A stretch of 64,000 nt of DNA from NCBI GenBank assembly GCA_030680835.1, contig JAUXUD010000014.1, positions 18,965-82,964 of the forward strand, written 5' to 3'. Shown one piece after another: positions 34,965 through 60,674 of the stretch. Numbering within the stretch: the stretch's first letter is position 1; each line of letters opens with the position of its first letter. The stretch comes from Bacteroidota bacterium. GTDB lineage: Bacteria > Bacteroidota > Bacteroidia > UKL13-3. The position numbers and the translations under genes are program-made. The notes below the pieces were generated by a model, which was not told the origin of the DNA, ran no database searches, and saw nothing but the letters and a program-made list of their open reading frames with translations.

Positions 34965-35339
34965 ATGGCCGAGATAATCAATCTGAATAAATATACCGAC
35001 AAACGGGGTAATTTAATAGTAATCGAAAAAGTACTACCCTTTACGATCAAAAGAGTCTTTTATATCTACGGTGTTGATGATTCTGTCAGAGGCAATCACC
35101 GTCATAAAACAACCATTCAAGCTGCAGTTTCAATTCAGGGAAGTTGCAGAATTTCGAATAAAAGCGGAATAGGAAATGCTATTGAAGAATTTTCTTTGGA
35201 TACCCCTTCTAAATGCCTTCTTATTAACCCTGAAGACTATCATTGGATGGATAACTTTTCAAAGGATTGTATTTTAATGGTTTTTGCCTCAGAGTATTTT
35301 GACAAAAACGATTATATTTATGAGAACTACCATGATTGA
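34965..35339 (+). CDS. WxcM-like/FdtA-family NDP-4-keto-6-deoxyhexose 3,4-ketoisomerase
   Basis: RGNLIVIEK...KRVFYIYGV...RGNHRHK. Confidence 0.65.
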   Translation: MAEIINLNKYTDKRGNLIVIEKVLPFTIKRVFYIYGVDDSVRGNHRHKTTIQAAVSIQGSCRISNKSGIGNAIEEFSLDTPSKCLLINPEDYHWMDNFSKDCILMVFASEYFDKNDYIYENYHD

Positions 35340-36414
35340 TTACGAAAATTTAGGCAACCTAAACGCTCCCTTTTTTGAGGAATACAAATCCTCTTTTTCA
35401 CGAACGCTCGAATCGGGTTGGTATATTTTGGGTGAAAATGTAAAGAAGTTTGAAATTGACTATGCGCAATATTGCGGAACAAATTATTGTATTGGCCTGG
35501 CATCCGGGTTAGATGCCTTACATCTGGCAATTCGTTGTTTTGATTTTCCTTCCGGAACAGAGATTATAGTTCCTTCAAATACCTATATAGCTACAATATT
35601 ATCAATTGTGCAAAATGGTTTTAAGCCTGTTCTGGTAGAACCTGATATTAAAACATATAATATCAATCCCACAAAAATAGAAGAAAAAATTACACCCAAT
35701 ACACGTGCTATAATGTTGGTACATCTATATGGCAAATGTTGCGATATGGAACCTATACTTTTTGTTGCAAAGAAATACGGATTGAAGGTAATTGAAGATT
35801 GCGCCCAATCTCATGGAAGTAAGTACAAAGGTCAAATTTCTGGTTCTTTTGGTGATTTTGGCGCTCATAGTTTCTACCCAACAAAAAATTTAGGAGCATT
35901 GGGCGATGCAGGAGCTGCAACAACAAATGATATTTTACTTGCCGAAAAACTTAAAGCATTGAGAAACTATGGTTCTAAAGTTAGATATGTGAATGAATAT
36001 GTTGGCTATAATTCACGCCTCGATGAAATGCAGGCTGGTTTTTTATCAATAAAATTAGCTTCGCTTAATGCGATTAACGAACATAAACGCAAGTTAGCAA
36101 AACTATATTTAGATAATCTTAATGTTGAGTTTATAAAACCAGTTGTAGACAAAGACTATTATGATGTATACCACATTTTTAACATTCGACACGCCAAACG
36201 TGATCAATTAAAAGAATATCTGTTATTGCATGGAATAAAGACAGAAATTCATTACCCGATTGCACCGAATAAACAAAAGGCAATGCAGGGTATCATTACC
36301 GGGAATTATCCTGTTTCAGAGGAAATTCACAATACTACATTAAGTTTACCTATTTCATTTTGTCATACAGACGAAGAAATTTACCGGGTTATAGAAACCC
36401 TAAACAAATTTTGA
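35332..36414 (+). CDS. DegT/DnrJ/EryC1 aminotransferase (FdtB/QdtB-like, dTDP-3-amino-3,6-dideoxyhexose forming)
   Basis: PLP-Lys motif FYPTKNLGALGDAGA. The ATG at 35332 overlaps the upstream stop. Confidence 0.75.
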   Translation: MIDYENLGNLNAPFFEEYKSSFSRTLESGWYILGENVKKFEIDYAQYCGTNYCIGLASGLDALHLAIRCFDFPSGTEIIVPSNTYIATILSIVQNGFKPVLVEPDIKTYNINPTKIEEKITPNTRAIMLVHLYGKCCDMEPILFVAKKYGLKVIEDCAQSHGSKYKGQISGSFGDFGAHSFYPTKNLGALGDAGAATTNDILLAEKLKALRNYGSKVRYVNEYVGYNSRLDEMQAGFLSIKLASLNAINEHKRKLAKLYLDNLNVEFIKPVVDKDYYDVYHIFNIRHAKRDQLKEYLLLHGIKTEIHYPIAPNKQKAMQGIITGNYPVSEEIHNTTLSLPISFCHTDEEIYRVIETLNKF

Positions 36415-37455: not shown

Positions 37456-38487
37456 ATGTTAAATAAAAAAGTATTATTAATTACCGGTGGAACAGGTTCA
37501 TTCGGAAATGCGGTCTTAAATCGATTTTTGAATACTGATCATTTTAAAGAAATCAGAATATTTTCAAGGGATGAAAAAAAACAGGACGATATGAGGAATC
37601 AATTTAAGAATGACAAATTGAAATTCTATATCGGCGATGTACGTGATTTTAATAGCATTGAGAGGGCAATGCGAGGAGTAGATTATGTATTTCATGCCGC
37701 CGCACTAAAACAGGTGCCATCTTGTGAGTTTTTCCCTATTGAAGCTGCAAAAACAAATGTATTTGGCACACAAAATGTGATTGACGCTGCTGCAGCAAAT
37801 AATGTAAAAAAAGTTATTTGTTTAAGCACAGACAAGGCTGCTTATCCAATAAATGCAATGGGAATATCAAAAGCCTTGATGGAAAAAGTAGCAGTGGCTG
37901 CATCCAGAAGTCTAACCAACACCACAGTTTGTCTGACAAGATATGGAAATGTGATGGCCTCAAGGGGCTCCGTAATTCCTCTGTTTTTAAAACAAATCAA
38001 ATCCGGCCAACCCATAACAATTACCGACCAAAAAATGACAAGGTTCCTTATGTCATTGGAGGACGCTGTTGAGCTGGTATTATTTGCCTTTGAACATGGT
38101 AACCAGGGTGATTTATTTGTAAACAAAGCACCGGCAGGAACGATTGGTGACCTGGCTCAGGCGTTGAAGGAAATTTGTGAGGCTAATACAGAAATAAAAA
38201 TCATTGGAACGCGACATGGAGAAAAATTATATGAAACACTTTGTACCCGTGAAGAGATGAAGAAAGCTGAAGATATGGGAGAATTTTACAGAGTTCCTGC
38301 TGATAACAGGGATTTGAATTATGCCCAGTATTTCTCTGAAGGAGAACAAGACATATCCCTGATTGAGGATTATCATTCACACAATACAACCCAATTAGAT
38401 ATTGAAGGAATGAAAAAACTATTAATGAAGTTGCCTTTAATACGGAAAGAGGTGTTTGGAGAAGATGTAGCTCAAATGCCGGGTTAG
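37456..38487 (+). CDS. UDP-N-acetylglucosamine 4,6-dehydratase/5-epimerase (CapE/FnlA/WbjB family)
   Basis: MLNKKVLLITGGTGSFGNAVLNRFL and the 343-aa length are typical of CapE/FnlA. Confidence 0.85.
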   Translation: MLNKKVLLITGGTGSFGNAVLNRFLNTDHFKEIRIFSRDEKKQDDMRNQFKNDKLKFYIGDVRDFNSIERAMRGVDYVFHAAALKQVPSCEFFPIEAAKTNVFGTQNVIDAAAANNVKKVICLSTDKAAYPINAMGISKALMEKVAVAASRSLTNTTVCLTRYGNVMASRGSVIPLFLKQIKSGQPITITDQKMTRFLMSLEDAVELVLFAFEHGNQGDLFVNKAPAGTIGDLAQALKEICEANTEIKIIGTRHGEKLYETLCTREEMKKAEDMGEFYRVPADNRDLNYAQYFSEGEQDISLIEDYHSHNTTQLDIEGMKKLLMKLPLIRKEVFGEDVAQMPG

Positions 38488-38488
38488 G

Positions 38489-38636
38489 AGAAAGTAAAAA
38501 GTAAAAAGTAAAAAGTAAAAAGTAAAAAGTAAAAAGTAAAAAGTAAAAAGTGAAAATTGAAAAGTGAAAAGTAAAAAGTAAAAAGTAAAAAGTTAAAAGT
38601 TAAAAGAGAAAAGAAAATAGTGAATAGTAAAAAGTA
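38489..38636. repeat. heptanucleotide tandem array (AAAAGTA)n, about 18 to 20 units with a few variant units
   Basis: Read directly: agtaaaaagtaaaaagtaaaaag... The minus-strand 74-aa ORF here is a repeat artefact (FTFYFLLFTF...). Confidence 0.9.
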
Positions 38637-38719
38637 ATTAGTTTCAGTGCCAACCACATGAATCACTTCACACCTATCCATACTTACTTTTGCCTTTTTA
38701 CTACTCACAAGAATCTAAA

Positions 38720-39133
38720 ATGTCCCCTAAAATAATCAAAGGTAACATTCACTCTGACTCAAGAGGAACATTGTATTATAATAATGATTTTGATGCTTCT
38801 CAAATCAAGCGAATTTATTTTATTGAAAATATAGACACTGATTTTATAAGAGGCTGGCAGGGACATAAGATTGAACAAAGGTGGTTTTCGGCTGTACTTG
38901 GATCTTTTAGAATTAGCATCTTGCCAATAGTGAGTTTTGAATCTTCTACTCAGAAAGTGAAGCCTCTTATATTTGAACTTTTTTCAAAACAACTGGACGT
39001 TTTGCATACACCTGGGGGTTATGTAACCGCCATTCAGGCATTGGAATCAAACGCTAAATTATTGGTAATGGCCGATTACCATTTAGGAGAGATAAATGAC
39101 GAATATCGATTTGAAGTAAAAAGTATAAAGTAA
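38720..39133 (+). CDS. small WxcM-like cupin-domain protein (putative sugar ketoisomerase-like)
   Basis: SDSRGTLYY...IKRIYFI...RGWQGHK resembles the FdtA/WxcM C-terminal domain. The ATG at 38720 is chosen over the TTG at 38690. Confidence 0.45.
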   Translation: MSPKIIKGNIHSDSRGTLYYNNDFDASQIKRIYFIENIDTDFIRGWQGHKIEQRWFSAVLGSFRISILPIVSFESSTQKVKPLIFELFSKQLDVLHTPGGYVTAIQALESNAKLLVMADYHLGEINDEYRFEVKSIK

Positions 39134-39245
39134 AAAGTATAAAGTAATATCAATTCCTTAGTAACTTTTATCTTTTCCCTTTTATCTTTTCCCTTTCCCC
39201 CATTCACTTTTTACTTTTGCCTTTTTACTTTTGCCTTATATCTAA
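39113..39245. repeat. AAAAGTA/TACTTTT-derived repeat block spanning the cupin gene 3' end and the intergenic region
   Basis: aagtaaaaagtataaagtaaaaagtataaagtaa, then tttttacttttgcctttttacttttgcc. The 18-mer TACTTTTGCCTTTTTACT also occurs at 38682-38699 upstream of the gene. Confidence 0.8.
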
Positions 39246-39250
39246 ATATT

Positions 39251-40369
39251 ATGCTTAAAATAGGAATTACTGGCCAATCTGGTTTTATAGGAACACATTT
39301 ATATAACAATCTGGGATTACACCCGGAAGAATTTGTTCGTATTGATTTTCAAGATAGTTTTTTTGAAAATGAAACCGATTTAGATGCATTCGTTTCGCAA
39401 TGTGATGTAATTATACATTTGGCAGCTATGAACCGTCACAATGATCCGCAAGTGATTTATGACACGAATATTGGATTGGTTCAGAAATTAATCACATCTT
39501 TAGAAATATTAAAAAGCAAAGCTCATATTTTGTTTTCCTCCTCCTCTCAGGAGGAGAAAGACAATCTTTATGGGAAATCTAAAAAAGAAGGAAGAGAATT
39601 ATTAATTAAATGGGCTGAAACTTCGGGAGGAAAATTTTCGGGAATGATTATTCCTAATGTATTCGGACCCTTTGGGCACCCAAATTACAATTCATTTATT
39701 GCCACTTTTAGCCATAAATTAACCCATGGTGAAATACCAAAACTTGAGGTAGATGGTTCAGTAAAATTAATTTATGTTGGAGAATTGGTGGCTGAAATTC
39801 TGTCGGAAATCAGAAGTGGAAAAGGTAATAATGAGTTTATAATTCCATATACTTCTGAATCAAAAGTTTCAGAAATATTAAATTTATTAGAAATATACAA
39901 GGAACAATATTTTGTAAAAGGAGAAATTCCAACCATCAACAACCGCTTTGAATTAAATTTATTCAACACCTTTCGTTGTTATATGGATATTGCCAACCAT
40001 TTCCCTTTTAAATACATACAACACACCGATCAAAGAGGTTCGTTTGTTGAAATTATTCGCTTAGGAATTGGCGGGCAAGTATCTTTCTCCACTACTGTGC
40101 CAGGCATCACAAGAGGAAATCATTTTCATACACGGAAGATTGAAAGGTTTTCTGTAATTAAAGGGAAAGCATTGATACAGCTTCGAAAAATTGGAAGTAC
40201 AAAAGTATTAGACTTTTACCTGGATGGCAATGAACCCGCCTATGTTGATATGCCTATATGGTATACGCATAATATAAAGAACATTGGTGATGAAGTATTA
40301 TACACCAACTTTTGGATAAATGAATTTTATGATGTGAACGATCCGGATACGTATTTTGAAACAGTATAG
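39251..40369 (+). CDS. bifunctional UDP-2-acetamido-2,6-dideoxy-hexulose 3-epimerase/reductase (CapF/FnlB/WbjC family)
   Basis: The N-terminal Rossmann region is GITGQSGFIGTHL. There is a C-terminal cupin region. It lies between the CapE and CapG homologues. Confidence 0.75.
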   Translation: MLKIGITGQSGFIGTHLYNNLGLHPEEFVRIDFQDSFFENETDLDAFVSQCDVIIHLAAMNRHNDPQVIYDTNIGLVQKLITSLEILKSKAHILFSSSSQEEKDNLYGKSKKEGRELLIKWAETSGGKFSGMIIPNVFGPFGHPNYNSFIATFSHKLTHGEIPKLEVDGSVKLIYVGELVAEILSEIRSGKGNNEFIIPYTSESKVSEILNLLEIYKEQYFVKGEIPTINNRFELNLFNTFRCYMDIANHFPFKYIQHTDQRGSFVEIIRLGIGGQVSFSTTVPGITRGNHFHTRKIERFSVIKGKALIQLRKIGSTKVLDFYLDGNEPAYVDMPIWYTHNIKNIGDEVLYTNFWINEFYDVNDPDTYFETV

Positions 40370-40370
40370 A

Positions 40371-40421
40371 GGTGATTAGTGACTTGTAACTGGTGATTAG
40401 TGACTTGTAACTGGTGATTAG
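40371..40421. repeat. 21-bp direct repeat GGTGATTAGTGACTTGTAACT, 2 full copies plus 1 partial
   Basis: Read directly. A complementary or inverted counterpart lies at 40876-40930. Confidence 0.85.
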
Positions 40422-40509
40422 TTTTAGGACATTTTGAACCAGTTAATTTTAAATTAAAGGTTTCTCTATCATGCATTAACCGCGATTCACCAATCACCAA
40501 TCACCCCAT

Positions 40510-40863
40510 ATGACTCATAAAGATTTAGAGGTTTGGAAGAAAAGCATTGATTTTGTTACCCGGATATATGATCTCACAAAAGAATATCCAAAGGAAGAAT
40601 TATTTGGTTTAGTTTCACAAATAAGAAGAGCAGCAGTTTCAATTCCTTCGAATATTGCAGAAGGTGCGTCAAGAAAAGGCAAAACAGAATTCAGGCATTT
40701 TTTATATATTTCATTAGCAAGCGGAGCTGAATTAGAAACACAATTAATAATTTCCGGAAATTTAAATTACATTAGTAAAGAAAAGCAAACTGAATTAATT
40801 GAAGAACTAAATATAATATCAAAAATGCTGCAAGGCTTAATCAAATCACTAAATCTAAACTGA
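40510..40863 (+). CDS. four-helix-bundle protein (23S rRNA intervening-sequence protein family, TIGR02436-like)
   Basis: 117 aa. DLEVWKKSIDFVTRIY...LVSQIRRAAVSIPSNIAEGASR is the hallmark of this family. Confidence 0.8.
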   Translation: MTHKDLEVWKKSIDFVTRIYDLTKEYPKEELFGLVSQIRRAAVSIPSNIAEGASRKGKTEFRHFLYISLASGAELETQLIISGNLNYISKEKQTELIEELNIISKMLQGLIKSLNLN

Positions 40864-40875
40864 ATTCAAATAACT

Positions 40876-40930
40876 AACTACAAGTCACTCAATGGACAAA
40901 CCAGTCACTAATCACCAATCACCAATCACC
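40876..40930. repeat. inverted counterpart of the 40371 repeat plus (AATCACC)3
   Basis: actacaagtcactcaatgg...cagtcactaatcaccaatcaccaatcacc. CACCAATCACCAATCACC also occurs at 40487-40506, immediately before the four-helix-bundle gene. Confidence 0.8.
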
Positions 40931-40942
40931 AAGCTAAAAGTA

Positions 40943-42136
40943 ATGACCGTAGTGGGTACCCGCCCCGAAATAATTCGTTTATCCAGAGTAATGGCTAAAT
41001 TGGATGAATCACCAGCAATTGAACATATAATCGTCCATACCGGCCAAAACTATGATTATGAATTGAATCAGATTTTCTTTGACGATATGGGAATCAGAAA
41101 ACCTGATCATTTTTTAAATGCGGCTGGAGAAACGGCAACTGAAACTATTGGCCAGATTCTGATTAAAATTGATGCGTTACTGGCCCATACAAATCCAGAT
41201 GCATTTTTAGTTTTAGGTGATACTAATTCTTGCCTTTGCGCCATACCAGCAAAGAAAAGGCATATCCCGATTTTCCACATGGAGGCTGGGAATCGTTGTT
41301 TTGATCAACGCGTTCCTGAAGAAACCAATCGAAAAATCGTAGATCATATATCCGATATTAATCTAACCTACAGTGATATTGCCAGAGAGTATTTACTTAG
41401 AGAAGGGTTACCAGCCGATAGAATAATAAAAACAGGTTCTCCCATGTTTGAAGTATTAAATCATTATAAAGCTAAAATTGAATCTTCTGATATTTTAAAC
41501 CGGTTGCATTTAGAGAAAGGTAAATATTTCGTTGTGTCCGCTCACCGTGAAGAAAATATAAACAGTGATAAAAACTTTTTGGGGTTAATAACAAGTTTGA
41601 ATGCTATTGCTGAAAAATATAAATTCCCAATAATTGTAAGTACTCATCCCCGCACACGCATTCGTTTGGAGAAGCTCTCAACAGACAGCAATCAGCGGTC
41701 AGCAGTCAGCAGTCAGCTATCAGAAAATAATAGTCAGATGAAAGCTGACCGCCGAATGCTGATAGCTGACAGCTTGATCCAATGGCAAAAACCAATGGGA
41801 TTTAGTGATTACAATTACCTCCAAATGAACGCCTTTGCAGTTTTATCTGATAGTGGTACGATTTCAGAAGAATCATCCATTTTGAATTTCCCCGCCCTAA
41901 ATATTAGAGATGCACATGAAAGACCTGAAGCTATGGAAGAAACTTCAGTAATGATGATGGGATTGAGTCCAGAAAGAATATTACAAGGTTTGGAACAATT
42001 GAAACATGAAGAATTATTTAATCAACGAATTTATAGACCGGTAGACGACTACTCTATGCCTAATGTTTCAGATAAAATGGTTAGGATTATTTTAAGTTAT
42101 ATAGATTATGTGAAAAGGGTTGTTTGGAATGAATAG
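40943..42136 (+). CDS. UDP-N-acetylglucosamine 2-epimerase, non-hydrolysing (CapG/FnlC/WbjD family). Carries an in-frame palindromic insertion.
   Basis: MTVVGTRPEIIRL...HPRTR. The start is moved to the ATG at 40943. The track start at 40892 translates the flanking repeat as TNHQSPITK. The segment coding STDSNQRSAVSSQLSENNSQMKADRRMLIADS (about 41685-41780) is a DNA palindrome. Confidence 0.8.
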   Translation: MTVVGTRPEIIRLSRVMAKLDESPAIEHIIVHTGQNYDYELNQIFFDDMGIRKPDHFLNAAGETATETIGQILIKIDALLAHTNPDAFLVLGDTNSCLCAIPAKKRHIPIFHMEAGNRCFDQRVPEETNRKIVDHISDINLTYSDIAREYLLREGLPADRIIKTGSPMFEVLNHYKAKIESSDILNRLHLEKGKYFVVSAHREENINSDKNFLGLITSLNAIAEKYKFPIIVSTHPRTRIRLEKLSTDSNQRSAVSSQLSENNSQMKADRRMLIADSLIQWQKPMGFSDYNYLQMNAFAVLSDSGTISEESSILNFPALNIRDAHERPEAMEETSVMMMGLSPERILQGLEQLKHEELFNQRIYRPVDDYSMPNVSDKMVRIILSYIDYVKRVVWNE

Positions 42137-47327: not shown

Positions 47328-48479
47328 ATGTCAAAAATAAAATTTGTAATTATTGGATTTGGGCATATTGGCAAACGCCATGCAACCATTGCGAATGATT
47401 ACCCGGGAGCTGAAGTAGTGGCTGTGGTGGATTTGAATAAAGATGTTGTAAAGCATGAGTTATTTCCTAAGGGTGCACAGTTTTTTGAAAGCATTGAAGC
47501 TTTTATGGGGGCGAAAGTTGCAGCGGATATTGTAACCATAGCAACACCAAATGGGTTTCATTGTCCGTATGCAATTAAGATGCTTGATGTGGGTTACCAT
47601 GTGGTGATTGAAAAACCTATGGGGCTCAGCAAAGCAGAGTGTGAACAGGTAATTTTTAAATCGCTTCAGGTATCCAAACAGGTATTTGTGGTTAAACAAA
47701 ATAGATATAGTCCGCCCAGTAAATGGATGAAGGAGATTGTTGGAAATAAAACAATTGGGGAAGTGTTAATGGTACAGGTTAATTGTTATTGGAATAGGGA
47801 TGAACGATACTATAAGAAGCGAGATCCCGATAGCTATCGGGAGAGAAACGAAATCCTTCGACAAGCTCAGGATGACAGGGAAATGAGAGTGGATATAGAT
47901 AAAAAAACTCATACCTCATACCTAATACCTCATAACTCATCAGACTGGAAAGGAACTTTGGATTTAGACGGTGGTACCCTGTTCACCCAATTCTCGCACT
48001 TCGTGGATATTATGTACTGGGTATTTGGCGATGTGAAAAACATCAAAGCTACCTTCGCCGATTTTAACCATGCTGAGCTTACTGAGTTTGAAGACAGCGG
48101 GGTTATAAATTTTGAGTTTGTAAATGGAGGATTAGGATGTATTAACTTTTCAACTTCTGTATGGGACACCAATATGGAAAGCAGCATTACAGTTGTTGGA
48201 ACAAAGGGAAGTTTTAAAGTAGGCGGACAGTATATGAATGAGGTAGTGTATTGCCATATAAAAGATTATGAAATGCCGGTGCTCCCTCCTACCAATGCGC
48301 CGAATGACTATGGTCCGTTTAAGGGGAGTGCGGCGAATCATCATTTTGTGATTGAGAATGTGGTGAATACTTTGAATGGCAGGGATACGATTACTGCGAA
48401 TGCGTTGGAGGGGTTGAAGGTTGTGGATATAATTGAACGCATCTACGAGCAGAGAGATTTGGCTAAATTAAAGAAATAA
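47328..48479 (+). CDS. UDP-N-acetyl-2-amino-2-deoxyglucuronate 3-dehydrogenase (WbpB/WlbA-like Gfo/Idh/MocA). Carries an in-frame MITE-derived insertion.
   Basis: FVIIGFGHIGKRHA and VVIEKPMG. The segment 47853-47944 matches the intergenic TIR repeat (ccttcgacaagctcaggatgacagg) and codes ...ILRQAQDDREMRVDIDKKTHTSYLIPHNS. Confidence 0.7.
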   Translation: MSKIKFVIIGFGHIGKRHATIANDYPGAEVVAVVDLNKDVVKHELFPKGAQFFESIEAFMGAKVAADIVTIATPNGFHCPYAIKMLDVGYHVVIEKPMGLSKAECEQVIFKSLQVSKQVFVVKQNRYSPPSKWMKEIVGNKTIGEVLMVQVNCYWNRDERYYKKRDPDSYRERNEILRQAQDDREMRVDIDKKTHTSYLIPHNSSDWKGTLDLDGGTLFTQFSHFVDIMYWVFGDVKNIKATFADFNHAELTEFEDSGVINFEFVNGGLGCINFSTSVWDTNMESSITVVGTKGSFKVGGQYMNEVVYCHIKDYEMPVLPPTNAPNDYGPFKGSAANHHFVIENVVNTLNGRDTITANALEGLKVVDIIERIYEQRDLAKLKK

Positions 48480-48480
48480 C

Positions 48481-48560
48481 CCGTTCACGCAGATTCCGCA
48501 GATTTTAGCAGATTCAATCTGCGATAATCTCCATTAATCTGCCAAATCTGCGTGAAAGGA
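48481..48560. repeat. REP-like palindromic element: TTCACGCAGAT (GCAGAT x3) ... (ATCTGC x3) ATCTGCGTGAA
   Basis: Read directly. Related copies are at 50396-50510 and 51025-51100. Confidence 0.85.
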
Positions 48561-48567
48561 TAAATAA

Positions 48568-49149: not shown

Positions 49150-49264
49150 TTTTTAAAATTCTTATGCTACAAAGAAACAAAGGAACAAATAGTGACTCGA
49201 AATTTCTTATAGTCGTACTTTGTTTCTTTGTGCCTTTGTAGCAAAAAAAAAGTGAAAACATAAA

Positions 49265-50389: not shown

Positions 50390-50395
50390 TATACG

Positions 50396-50510
50396 GTTCA
50401 CGCACCCTTCGACAGGCTCAGGGTGACAAAAAGATTAAAGCAGATTATCGGAGATTAATTTCTGCGATAATCTGCTTTAATCTGCGACATCTGCGTGAGT
50501 GTGAAAAATT
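50396..50510. repeat. composite repeat: GTTCACGCA, then a solo MITE TIR (CCTTCGACAGGCTCAGGGTGACA), then ATCTGCG palindromic repeats
   Basis: Read directly. Confidence 0.8.
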
Positions 50511-50524
50511 AAAACCCAATCACA

Positions 50525-53449: not shown

Positions 53450-53450
53450 T

Positions 53451-53602
53451 ATCCTTCGACAGGCTCAGGATGACAAGCCTTCTTGTTATATTTGGCAGTG
53501 ATTTTTGGTGGGATAAATTTTTTGCAAAGCAAAAAATTTATCCCACCAAAAATCACTGCTCTTAATTAATTGCGTATTGTCATCCTGAGCTTGCCGAAGG
53601 AT
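53451..53602. mobile_element. MITE-like non-autonomous palindromic element
   Basis: Terminal inverted repeats ATCCTTCGACAGGCTCAGGATGACAA (53451-53476) and TTGTCATCCTGAGCTTGCCGAAGGAT (53577-53602). They enclose a perfect internal palindrome, gcagtgatttttggtgggataaatttttt-gcaaagc-aaaaaatttatcccaccaaaaatcactgc. Confidence 0.6.
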
Positions 53603-53710
53603 CTTCCAACTGTGTTGCTAAGGCTATCCGCGTTTCCAAAATCTCAAAAATTTTAAAGATAAACCTTGCATTTATGTTAAAATTAATATATTTGTAGGTC
53701 TTCAACCATT

Positions 53711-60512: not shown

Positions 60513-60513
60513 A

Positions 60514-60640
60514 GACGCCATAAATGGCGTCTGTACGGGTGGAAGCGGAACATTGGATGGGAAATGGGGTGGAAGCCGAATATTGGGTGGTAACATGTAA
60601 AGACGCCATTTATGGCGTCTCCTGGTGGAAGCCAAATATT
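60514..60640. repeat. twin 20-nt hairpins (AGACGCCATAAATGGCGTCT and AGACGCCATTTATGGCGTCT) flanking three approximately 22-bp direct repeats (GGTGGAAGCnnAAnATTGGnT) in the actB-actC spacer
   Basis: Read directly. Confidence 0.85.
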
Positions 60641-60674
60641 GGATATTGAAAATTTTAAAAACAAACAGTAAAAA

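Follow-up and report, generated by a model that had tools for sequence, protein, structure and literature searches.

Tandem heptamer arrays lengthen both spacers around a conserved cupin gene in a Bacteroidota fnlA-cupin-fnlB-fnlC operon

Both spacers around a small cupin gene in a Bacteroidota sugar-biosynthesis operon are inflated by one family of tandem heptamers, within the 64,000-nucleotide stretch of DNA analysed here (the window). In the reading that we consider best, with a probability of about one half, these are slippage-generated arrays whose co-transcribed hairpins would have a graded effect on expression. The cupin that they surround is, judged by sequence comparison, a normal conserved member of the operon.

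The locus is a Bacteroidota fnlA-cupin-fnlB-fnlC (L-FucNAc-type) operon, in which every gene between 37456 and 43340 lies on the plus strand. It comprises a fnlA/capE-like UDP-GlcNAc 4,6-dehydratase/5-epimerase gene (37456-38487; Pfam Polysacc_synt_2, 6e-105; NCBIfam FnlA, 559 bits), the gene of a 137-aa FdtA/QdtA-like cupin with an ATG start (38720-39133), a fnlB/capF-like reductase gene encoding an SDR domain and a C-terminal cupin (39251-40369), a four-helix-bundle S23p/IVP gene (23S rRNA intervening-sequence protein, Avd-like; 40510-40863; Pfam PF05635, 5e-41; TIGR02436), fnlC/capG (40943-42136, its start set by homolog alignment) and, after capG, a WbuB-like glycosyltransferase gene. Further upstream, a canonical FdtA-type cupin (PF05523, 2e-31) stands beside a DegT-type aminotransferase at 34965-36414, and the locus therefore carries two distinct small cupins.

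The preliminary description had counted about 20 AAAAGTA units directly behind the capE stop codon, and we found 21 of them on the plus strand at 38490-38637 (array A1), with the stop codon 2 nt upstream. Tandem Repeats Finder places A1 at 38491-38637 (score 210, period 7, 21.0 copies with 90% matches); no other array of the window comes near it in strength. The array is purine-rich and contains TAA in all three frames. Its units run, from 38490, as GAAAGTA, seven perfect AAAAGTA, then AAAAGTG, AAAATTG and AAAAGTG, three further perfect units and a degenerating remainder; the perfect run of seven thus stands at the 5' end and the decay increases toward the 3' end, a pattern that fits an origin by slippage. 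On the minus strand the unit reads TACTTTT, which is free of stop codons, and this mechanically produces the 74-aa open reading frame that spans A1 (38484-38708).

Beyond a unique spacer of 47 nt (38638-38684, plus strand) lies a short inverse arm, the 18-mer TACTTTTGCCTTTTTACT (a1', 38685-38702). Its presence on both sides of the cupin had been described correctly, with the first copy placed 3 nt off (38682-38699): on the plus strand the exact 18-mer occurs only twice, at 38685-38702 and 39212-39229, against a chance expectation of 0.02, and it forms part of a 19-nt identity common to both cupin spacers. Because the 18-mer matches the minus strand of A1 at 7 registers with 2 mismatches, it consists of 2.5 reverse-complement heptamer units and has no independent sequence. 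What had been taken for 18-bp direct repeats bordering a cassette are the shared homologous 3' arms of two array pairs.

The second pair begins with array A2 (AAGTAAAAAGTATA in 2.4 copies, or 4.9 heptamers; 39114-39147, plus strand), which overlaps the cupin stop codon. The last 20 nt of the coding sequence fall inside A2, in agreement with the AAAAGTA-type 3' end reported before for this 137-aa gene, and only about the last five residues of the protein (EVKSIK) are array-encoded. A2 is followed by an inverse array of about 11 pyrimidine-rich units (CTTTTAT, CTTTTCC, CTTTTTA and CTTTTGC; a2', 39165-39243, plus strand), which contains the second 18-mer copy and extends to the capF start region. 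Both spacers are therefore built alike: a purine-rich AAAAGTA-type array at the 5' side (21 units in the first spacer, 4.9 in the second) is followed by a gap and then by complementary pyrimidine-rich units at the 3' side (2.5 in the first, about 11 in the second). The arrays account for the excess length of the two spacers, which measure 232 nt (capE-cupin) and 117 nt (cupin-capF); the approximate medians among relatives are 9 and 29 nt.

The flanks of the arrays are base-for-base identical in an independent short-read assembly (Logan, SRR13727518), whose contigs end within A1, within the short array that overlaps the 3' end of the cupin gene and within a 21-mer array after capF; the arrays are thus present in the reads. 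The count of 21 units comes from one assembly, as the SRR13727518 assembly breaks in every array. The contigs of the nearest cupin homologs (P0002 and P0004) likewise begin at or just before the cupin. Together these breaks suggest that arrays at the cupin junction commonly fragment assemblies.

The two array pairs are also complementary to one another. Over 76 nt, a2' is complementary to the centre of A1 at 79%, more than composition would produce (z about -3.5), and it also pairs locally with A2. Pairing of A1 with 39165-39243 reaches -52.9 kcal/mol, compared with -36.4 ± 4.7 for shuffled sequences. In the fold of the whole region these two segments are paired and the cupin is looped out (z -2.9), and the cupin-capF spacer forms a hairpin of its own (z -2.6); the capE-cupin spacer alone folds no better than its shuffles (z +0.18). 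In the proposed mechanism, the arrays would arise and change length through slipped-strand mispairing and would be transcribed within the co-directional operon. Within the transcript, each start codon could then be preceded by a hairpin, or a long stem could form and leave the cupin in its loop. Most likely, such structures would tune how strongly the cupin and fnlB are expressed, by way of ribosome access or of RNase III processing, to a degree set by array length; the effect would be graded, with no on/off switch, and possibly near-neutral. That capG tolerates an in-frame hairpin makes it doubtful that all stems of this kind are cleaved efficiently.

The closest functional parallel is found in Haemophilus influenzae, where (ATCTTTC)n forms the left arm of a hairpin in the hmw 5'UTR that is cut by RNase III and sets the level of HMW1A (PMC12721329). 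The cupin spacers share with hmw1A/hmw2A the heptamer left arm and a right arm located just upstream of a start codon. In hmw1A/hmw2A the transcribed array lies between a mapped promoter and the gene, with demonstrated length polymorphism and demonstrated cleavage by RNase III, whereas the cupin arrays are operon-internal. By analogy, an array acting as a length-variable element that tunes downstream expression, as the preliminary description had raised, is plausible.

As repeats, the arrays belong to a familiar kind. In Bacteroidetes, heptamer arrays of up to 43 copies have been described in spacers whose counterparts in relatives are short and carry no repeats (MacGregor 2015, PMC4679880). 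Cyanobacterial STRR and the TAACTGA-type arrays of Beggiatoaceae, Cyanobacteria and Bacteroidetes (PMC4679880; Mrazek 2007) likewise consist of tandem 7-nt intergenic units, and they too occur with several unit sequences per genome, in tens of copies, in spacers that are repeat-free in relatives. The unit is AAAAGTA here, and TAACTGA or CCCCAGT in those known arrays. Unlike STRR-type arrays, those described here have a complementary partner array in the same or the next spacer, and some lie in frame inside genes. On their own, the AAAAGTA arrays add one more ordinary case to a repeat type known from Bacteroidetes, and the main value of finding them is that it corrects the cassette reading.

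A strong rival, which we hold to be a serious but minority possibility, is neutral simple-sequence expansion: slippage products would be tolerated in non-essential spacers with no effect on expression, and the complementarity would be a by-product of the same A/T-rich unit. The stems are A/U-only and therefore weak. In a G-U test of strand preference, the minus sense folded better than the transcribed sense for all arm pairs tested, so there is no sign of selection on the plus-sense RNA, and the complementarity may be a DNA-level by-product. A different Bacteroidota MAG (locus L024), whose cupin is only 36% identical, carries (AAAAGAT)n at both cupin junctions as direct arrays with no inverse arms, and pairing is therefore not obligatory. 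Neutral expansion would also agree with the lack of any spacer in most relatives and with the prevalence of heptamers, which are the most frequent unit of long SSRs in prokaryotes (Mrazek 2007, as quoted in PMC4679880). It accounts less well for the 76-nt inverse match, which exceeds composition, for the placement of an inverse arm just ahead of both start codons, and for an architecture and purine/pyrimidine polarity that are common to IVP elements.

The preliminary description had also considered phase-variable expression of capF, capG and wbuB. In a classical phase-variation (contingency) locus, changes in unit number would switch these genes on and off. Seven perfect units in a run would suit such a switch, as would the tuning of hmw expression by heptamer SSRs in H. 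influenzae and the copy-number variation between Coxiella strains. We consider it unlikely, since the array is intercistronic, follows a stop codon in a co-directional operon and lies outside any reading frame, and no promoter spans it; the match to the Bacteroidota -7 box lies downstream of the A1 tract, not across it. Similar arrays at many unrelated junctions and in coding loops are better explained by a genome-wide repeat habit.

That -7 match leads to a further and similarly doubtful alternative, in which the 18-mer supplies internal promoters and the A-array serves as an upstream element or spacer. The 18-mer contains TACTTTTG, which fits the Bacteroidota -7 box TAnnTTTG and stands 35 nt before the cupin ATG; the same motif recurs 39 and 25 nt before the capF ATG. 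All three distances resemble those of likely operon promoters at 53687 and 56094. The motif is, however, an automatic consequence of the repeat unit, it is accompanied by no -33 TTG at proper spacing, and TAnnTTTG matches show no enrichment on the coding strand (45 vs 50). Scans for sigma-70 promoters and terminators stayed at chance level, and an Rfam search of 36000-56500 at a permissive threshold gave only generic hairpin matches, at 53497-53557.

The evidence that the cupin is a resident gene comes from its homologs. These number 1656 at about 60% identity and are about 138 aa long, the named ones being from Flavobacterium and Lutibacter. The window's cupin is full length and retains 40 of 40 family-invariant residues. 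It appears to be FdtA-like, with 21.9 bits against Pfam PF05523, below the cut-off of 23; the homolog profile matches structures of QdtA/FdtA (5e-5), and the match is confined to the N-terminal half. The cupin does not belong to the S23p family (PF05635/TIGR02436). In the searched collections the closest capE is 89% identical, and the window's cupin is alone in its cluster. The order capE-cupin-capF-capG-glycosyltransferase, with gaps of 3-15 nt, is found in Flavobacterium tructae and on another contig. We retrieved 80 genome loci with capE, 32 of which have a capE at least 76% identical. Checking these 32 for presence or absence of the cupin gave the order capE-cupin-capF in 23, with small, repeat-free gaps, and capE-capF with no cupin in 4; the more distant loci mostly have no cupin. 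A mobile cassette bounded by 18-bp direct repeats and inserted at the capE-capF junction, as the preliminary description had proposed, is consequently contradicted and highly improbable: the exact 18-mer on either side and the lack of a cupin in some Bacteroidota loci (L008, L020, L025 and L029) or in other phyla speak for it, but the gene occupies the same position with no repeats in those 23 near relatives, purifying selection on it is clear, the repeats consist of heptamer units and not of a duplicated target or attachment site, and an unsystematic look at the operon genes examined noticed no integrase or transposase.

A gene enclosed by comparable arrays, the S23p/IVP gene, is inserted between capF and capG, 1.3 kb downstream of the cupin. 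Its 5' arm (GGTGATTAGTGACTTGTAACT in 2.5 copies, three heptamers per unit; 40371-40422) is followed by a short inverse array just before the IVP ATG (TCACCAA in 2.7 copies; 40487-40505), which corresponds in position to the 18-mer ahead of the cupin ATG. The 3' arm (ACAAGTCACT...AGTCACTAATCACCAATCACCAATCACC; 40874-40935) is the reverse complement of the 21-mer array; all three elements are given on the plus strand. Since the longest capG open reading frame begins inside this 3' arm, at 40892, its first 17 codons are translated heptamer arm (TNHQSPIT). This extension is spurious, and alignment with homologs puts the real start at 40943 (MTVVGTRPE). The sequence of 5' array, spacer, short inverse array, ATG, open reading frame and 3' inverse array is common to the cupin and the IVP gene.

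S23p intervening sequences of 23S rRNA offer the corresponding precedent. In Coxiella, two to three GACAGAT heptamers precede the S23p open reading frame, their number differs among strains, and RNase III cuts at the first repeat (PMC4990558). The stem-enclosed open reading frame with heptamers upstream, as known from Coxiella and Leptospira (PMC4990558), is found here too: both the IVP gene and the cupin are enclosed by complementary arms with tandem heptamers upstream, and at 40510-40863 the open reading frame itself belongs to PF05635/TIGR02436, placing the same protein family with the same layout 1.3 kb from the cupin. The hosts differ, in that S23p intervening sequences reside in 23S helix 25/45, whereas the IVP gene and the cupin both lie in an mRNA operon. 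The enclosed genes differ as well, the one around which the AAAAGTA arrays lie being a resident biosynthetic gene in place of S23p.

This arrangement of IVP genes recurs widely. In related operons, IVP genes occupy different junctions (L025, L037, L042, two copies in L046, and L050), all of them between inverted GTGAT-type heptamers. Of 72 metagenomic IVP loci, 51 have complementary flanks (z > 4); the corresponding figure for 80 control genes is 4 (Fisher p 1e-18), and these four are open reading frames of 110-125 aa that may be paralogs. In public metagenomes, S23p genes outside rRNA are thus mostly located between tandem-array arms. The flanks have a period of 7 or 8 in 41 of the 72 loci, and the upstream arm has more G than C in 45 of the 51 loci with complementary flanks. 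The cupin arrays have the polarity of IVP flanks, purine-rich upstream and pyrimidine-rich downstream. The IVP genes of L120 and L127 show the same array-enclosed arrangement. Genes of a second family, GxxExxY (TIGR04256), lie between inverted tandem-array arms in spacers of the same operon, one intact (L039, 7584-8155) and one interrupted (L027, 8740-9278).

We tentatively suggest, as an idea that is rather less probable than not, that tandem-array-armed hairpins with units of 7-10 nt form one intervening-sequence-like class, either empty or carrying an S23p/four-helix-bundle or GxxExxY open reading frame. Besides 23S rRNA, such a class would colonise the spacers of operons and coding loops that tolerate insertions, in Bacteroidota as well as in other phyla; the AAAAGTA pair at the cupin would be a member with no open reading frame of its own, the arms would be RNase III substrates, and the expandable arrays would tune segmental operon expression. 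If correct, this would connect three subjects that are little understood, namely rRNA intervening sequences, heptamers of the STRR type and the large orphan families TIGR02436 and TIGR04256, and it would offer a model, open to testing, of how repeat length might tune polysaccharide operons. In the searchable literature we found no description of a link between arrays and S23p/GxxExxY elements outside rRNA, and this link is a more interesting lead than the arrays alone.

Heptamer repeats are a habit of the window as a whole. Arrays with at least 18 of 21 self-matches number 6 at period 7, compared with 0-1 at the other periods from 4 to 12 and with none in shuffles. Heptamer arrays with differing units, mostly intergenic, start at 38490, 39114, 39165, 40371, 40487, 40900, 41678, 47231 and 47908. 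Tandem 7-nt units thus occur above chance at multiple loci, as in heptanucleotide SSR/STRR-like arrays. Among 82 comparison loci (877 kb) there are 19 period-7 arrays vs 0-6 at other periods, limited to a few MAGs. At the junctions occupied in the window, arrays recur in a minority of other Bacteroidota: besides L024, the loci L042 (Saprospiraceae) and L046 (Flavobacteriales) carry other heptamers at the cupin junctions and inside capF or capG. A search of IMG/VR with (AAAAGTA)4 matched 36 contigs, many of them labelled giant-virus MAGs, and the unit is therefore not taxon-specific.

Within the coding sequence of capG, TCAGCAG units and their complement form an in-frame heptamer hairpin (41675-41780, plus strand; -46 kcal/mol, z -4.1) that adds about 26 aa. 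The insertion site is the same in the window, L025, L042 and L046, with differing sequences; in L046 it is capG that contains an in-frame AAAAGTA-type array plus its complement. Palindromic repeats that are co-transcribed with genes are well known, among them REP/BIME, the Correia elements of Neisseria, which are RNase III substrates, and the in-frame palindromic elements of Rickettsia. The structures described here are likewise intergenic or in-frame hairpins on mRNAs, and the capG insertion resembles an in-frame (Rickettsia-type) palindromic element. Those families, however, are dispersed copies of one consensus with terminal repeats, whereas the hairpins described here have tandem arrays as arms and differ in unit sequence from locus to locus.

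Farther downstream, the open reading frame 47328-48479 contains a dispersed 22-nt motif followed by CTCATAC heptamers (4.7 copies) at 47855-47940, which appears to be an in-frame repeat insertion. Intergenic hairpins with no open reading frame were observed at 48480-48567, 49150-49264, 50390-50524 and 60513-60662 (z -8.0, -7.3, -6.8 and -4.7, respectively); their arms are tandem 8-10-nt units, for example of GCAGATT type, and the spacers between 0 and 38 kb are free of such tandem-unit hairpins. The dispersed 22-nt motif, CCTTCGACARGCTCAGGRTGAC, has five copies in the window (47855, 50406, 53453, 53579 on the minus strand, and 55694), where none is expected by chance. Motifs related to it are present in spacers of L024 and L027, and two of its copies form the outer arms of a perfect 150-nt hairpin at 53450-53599 (z -15).
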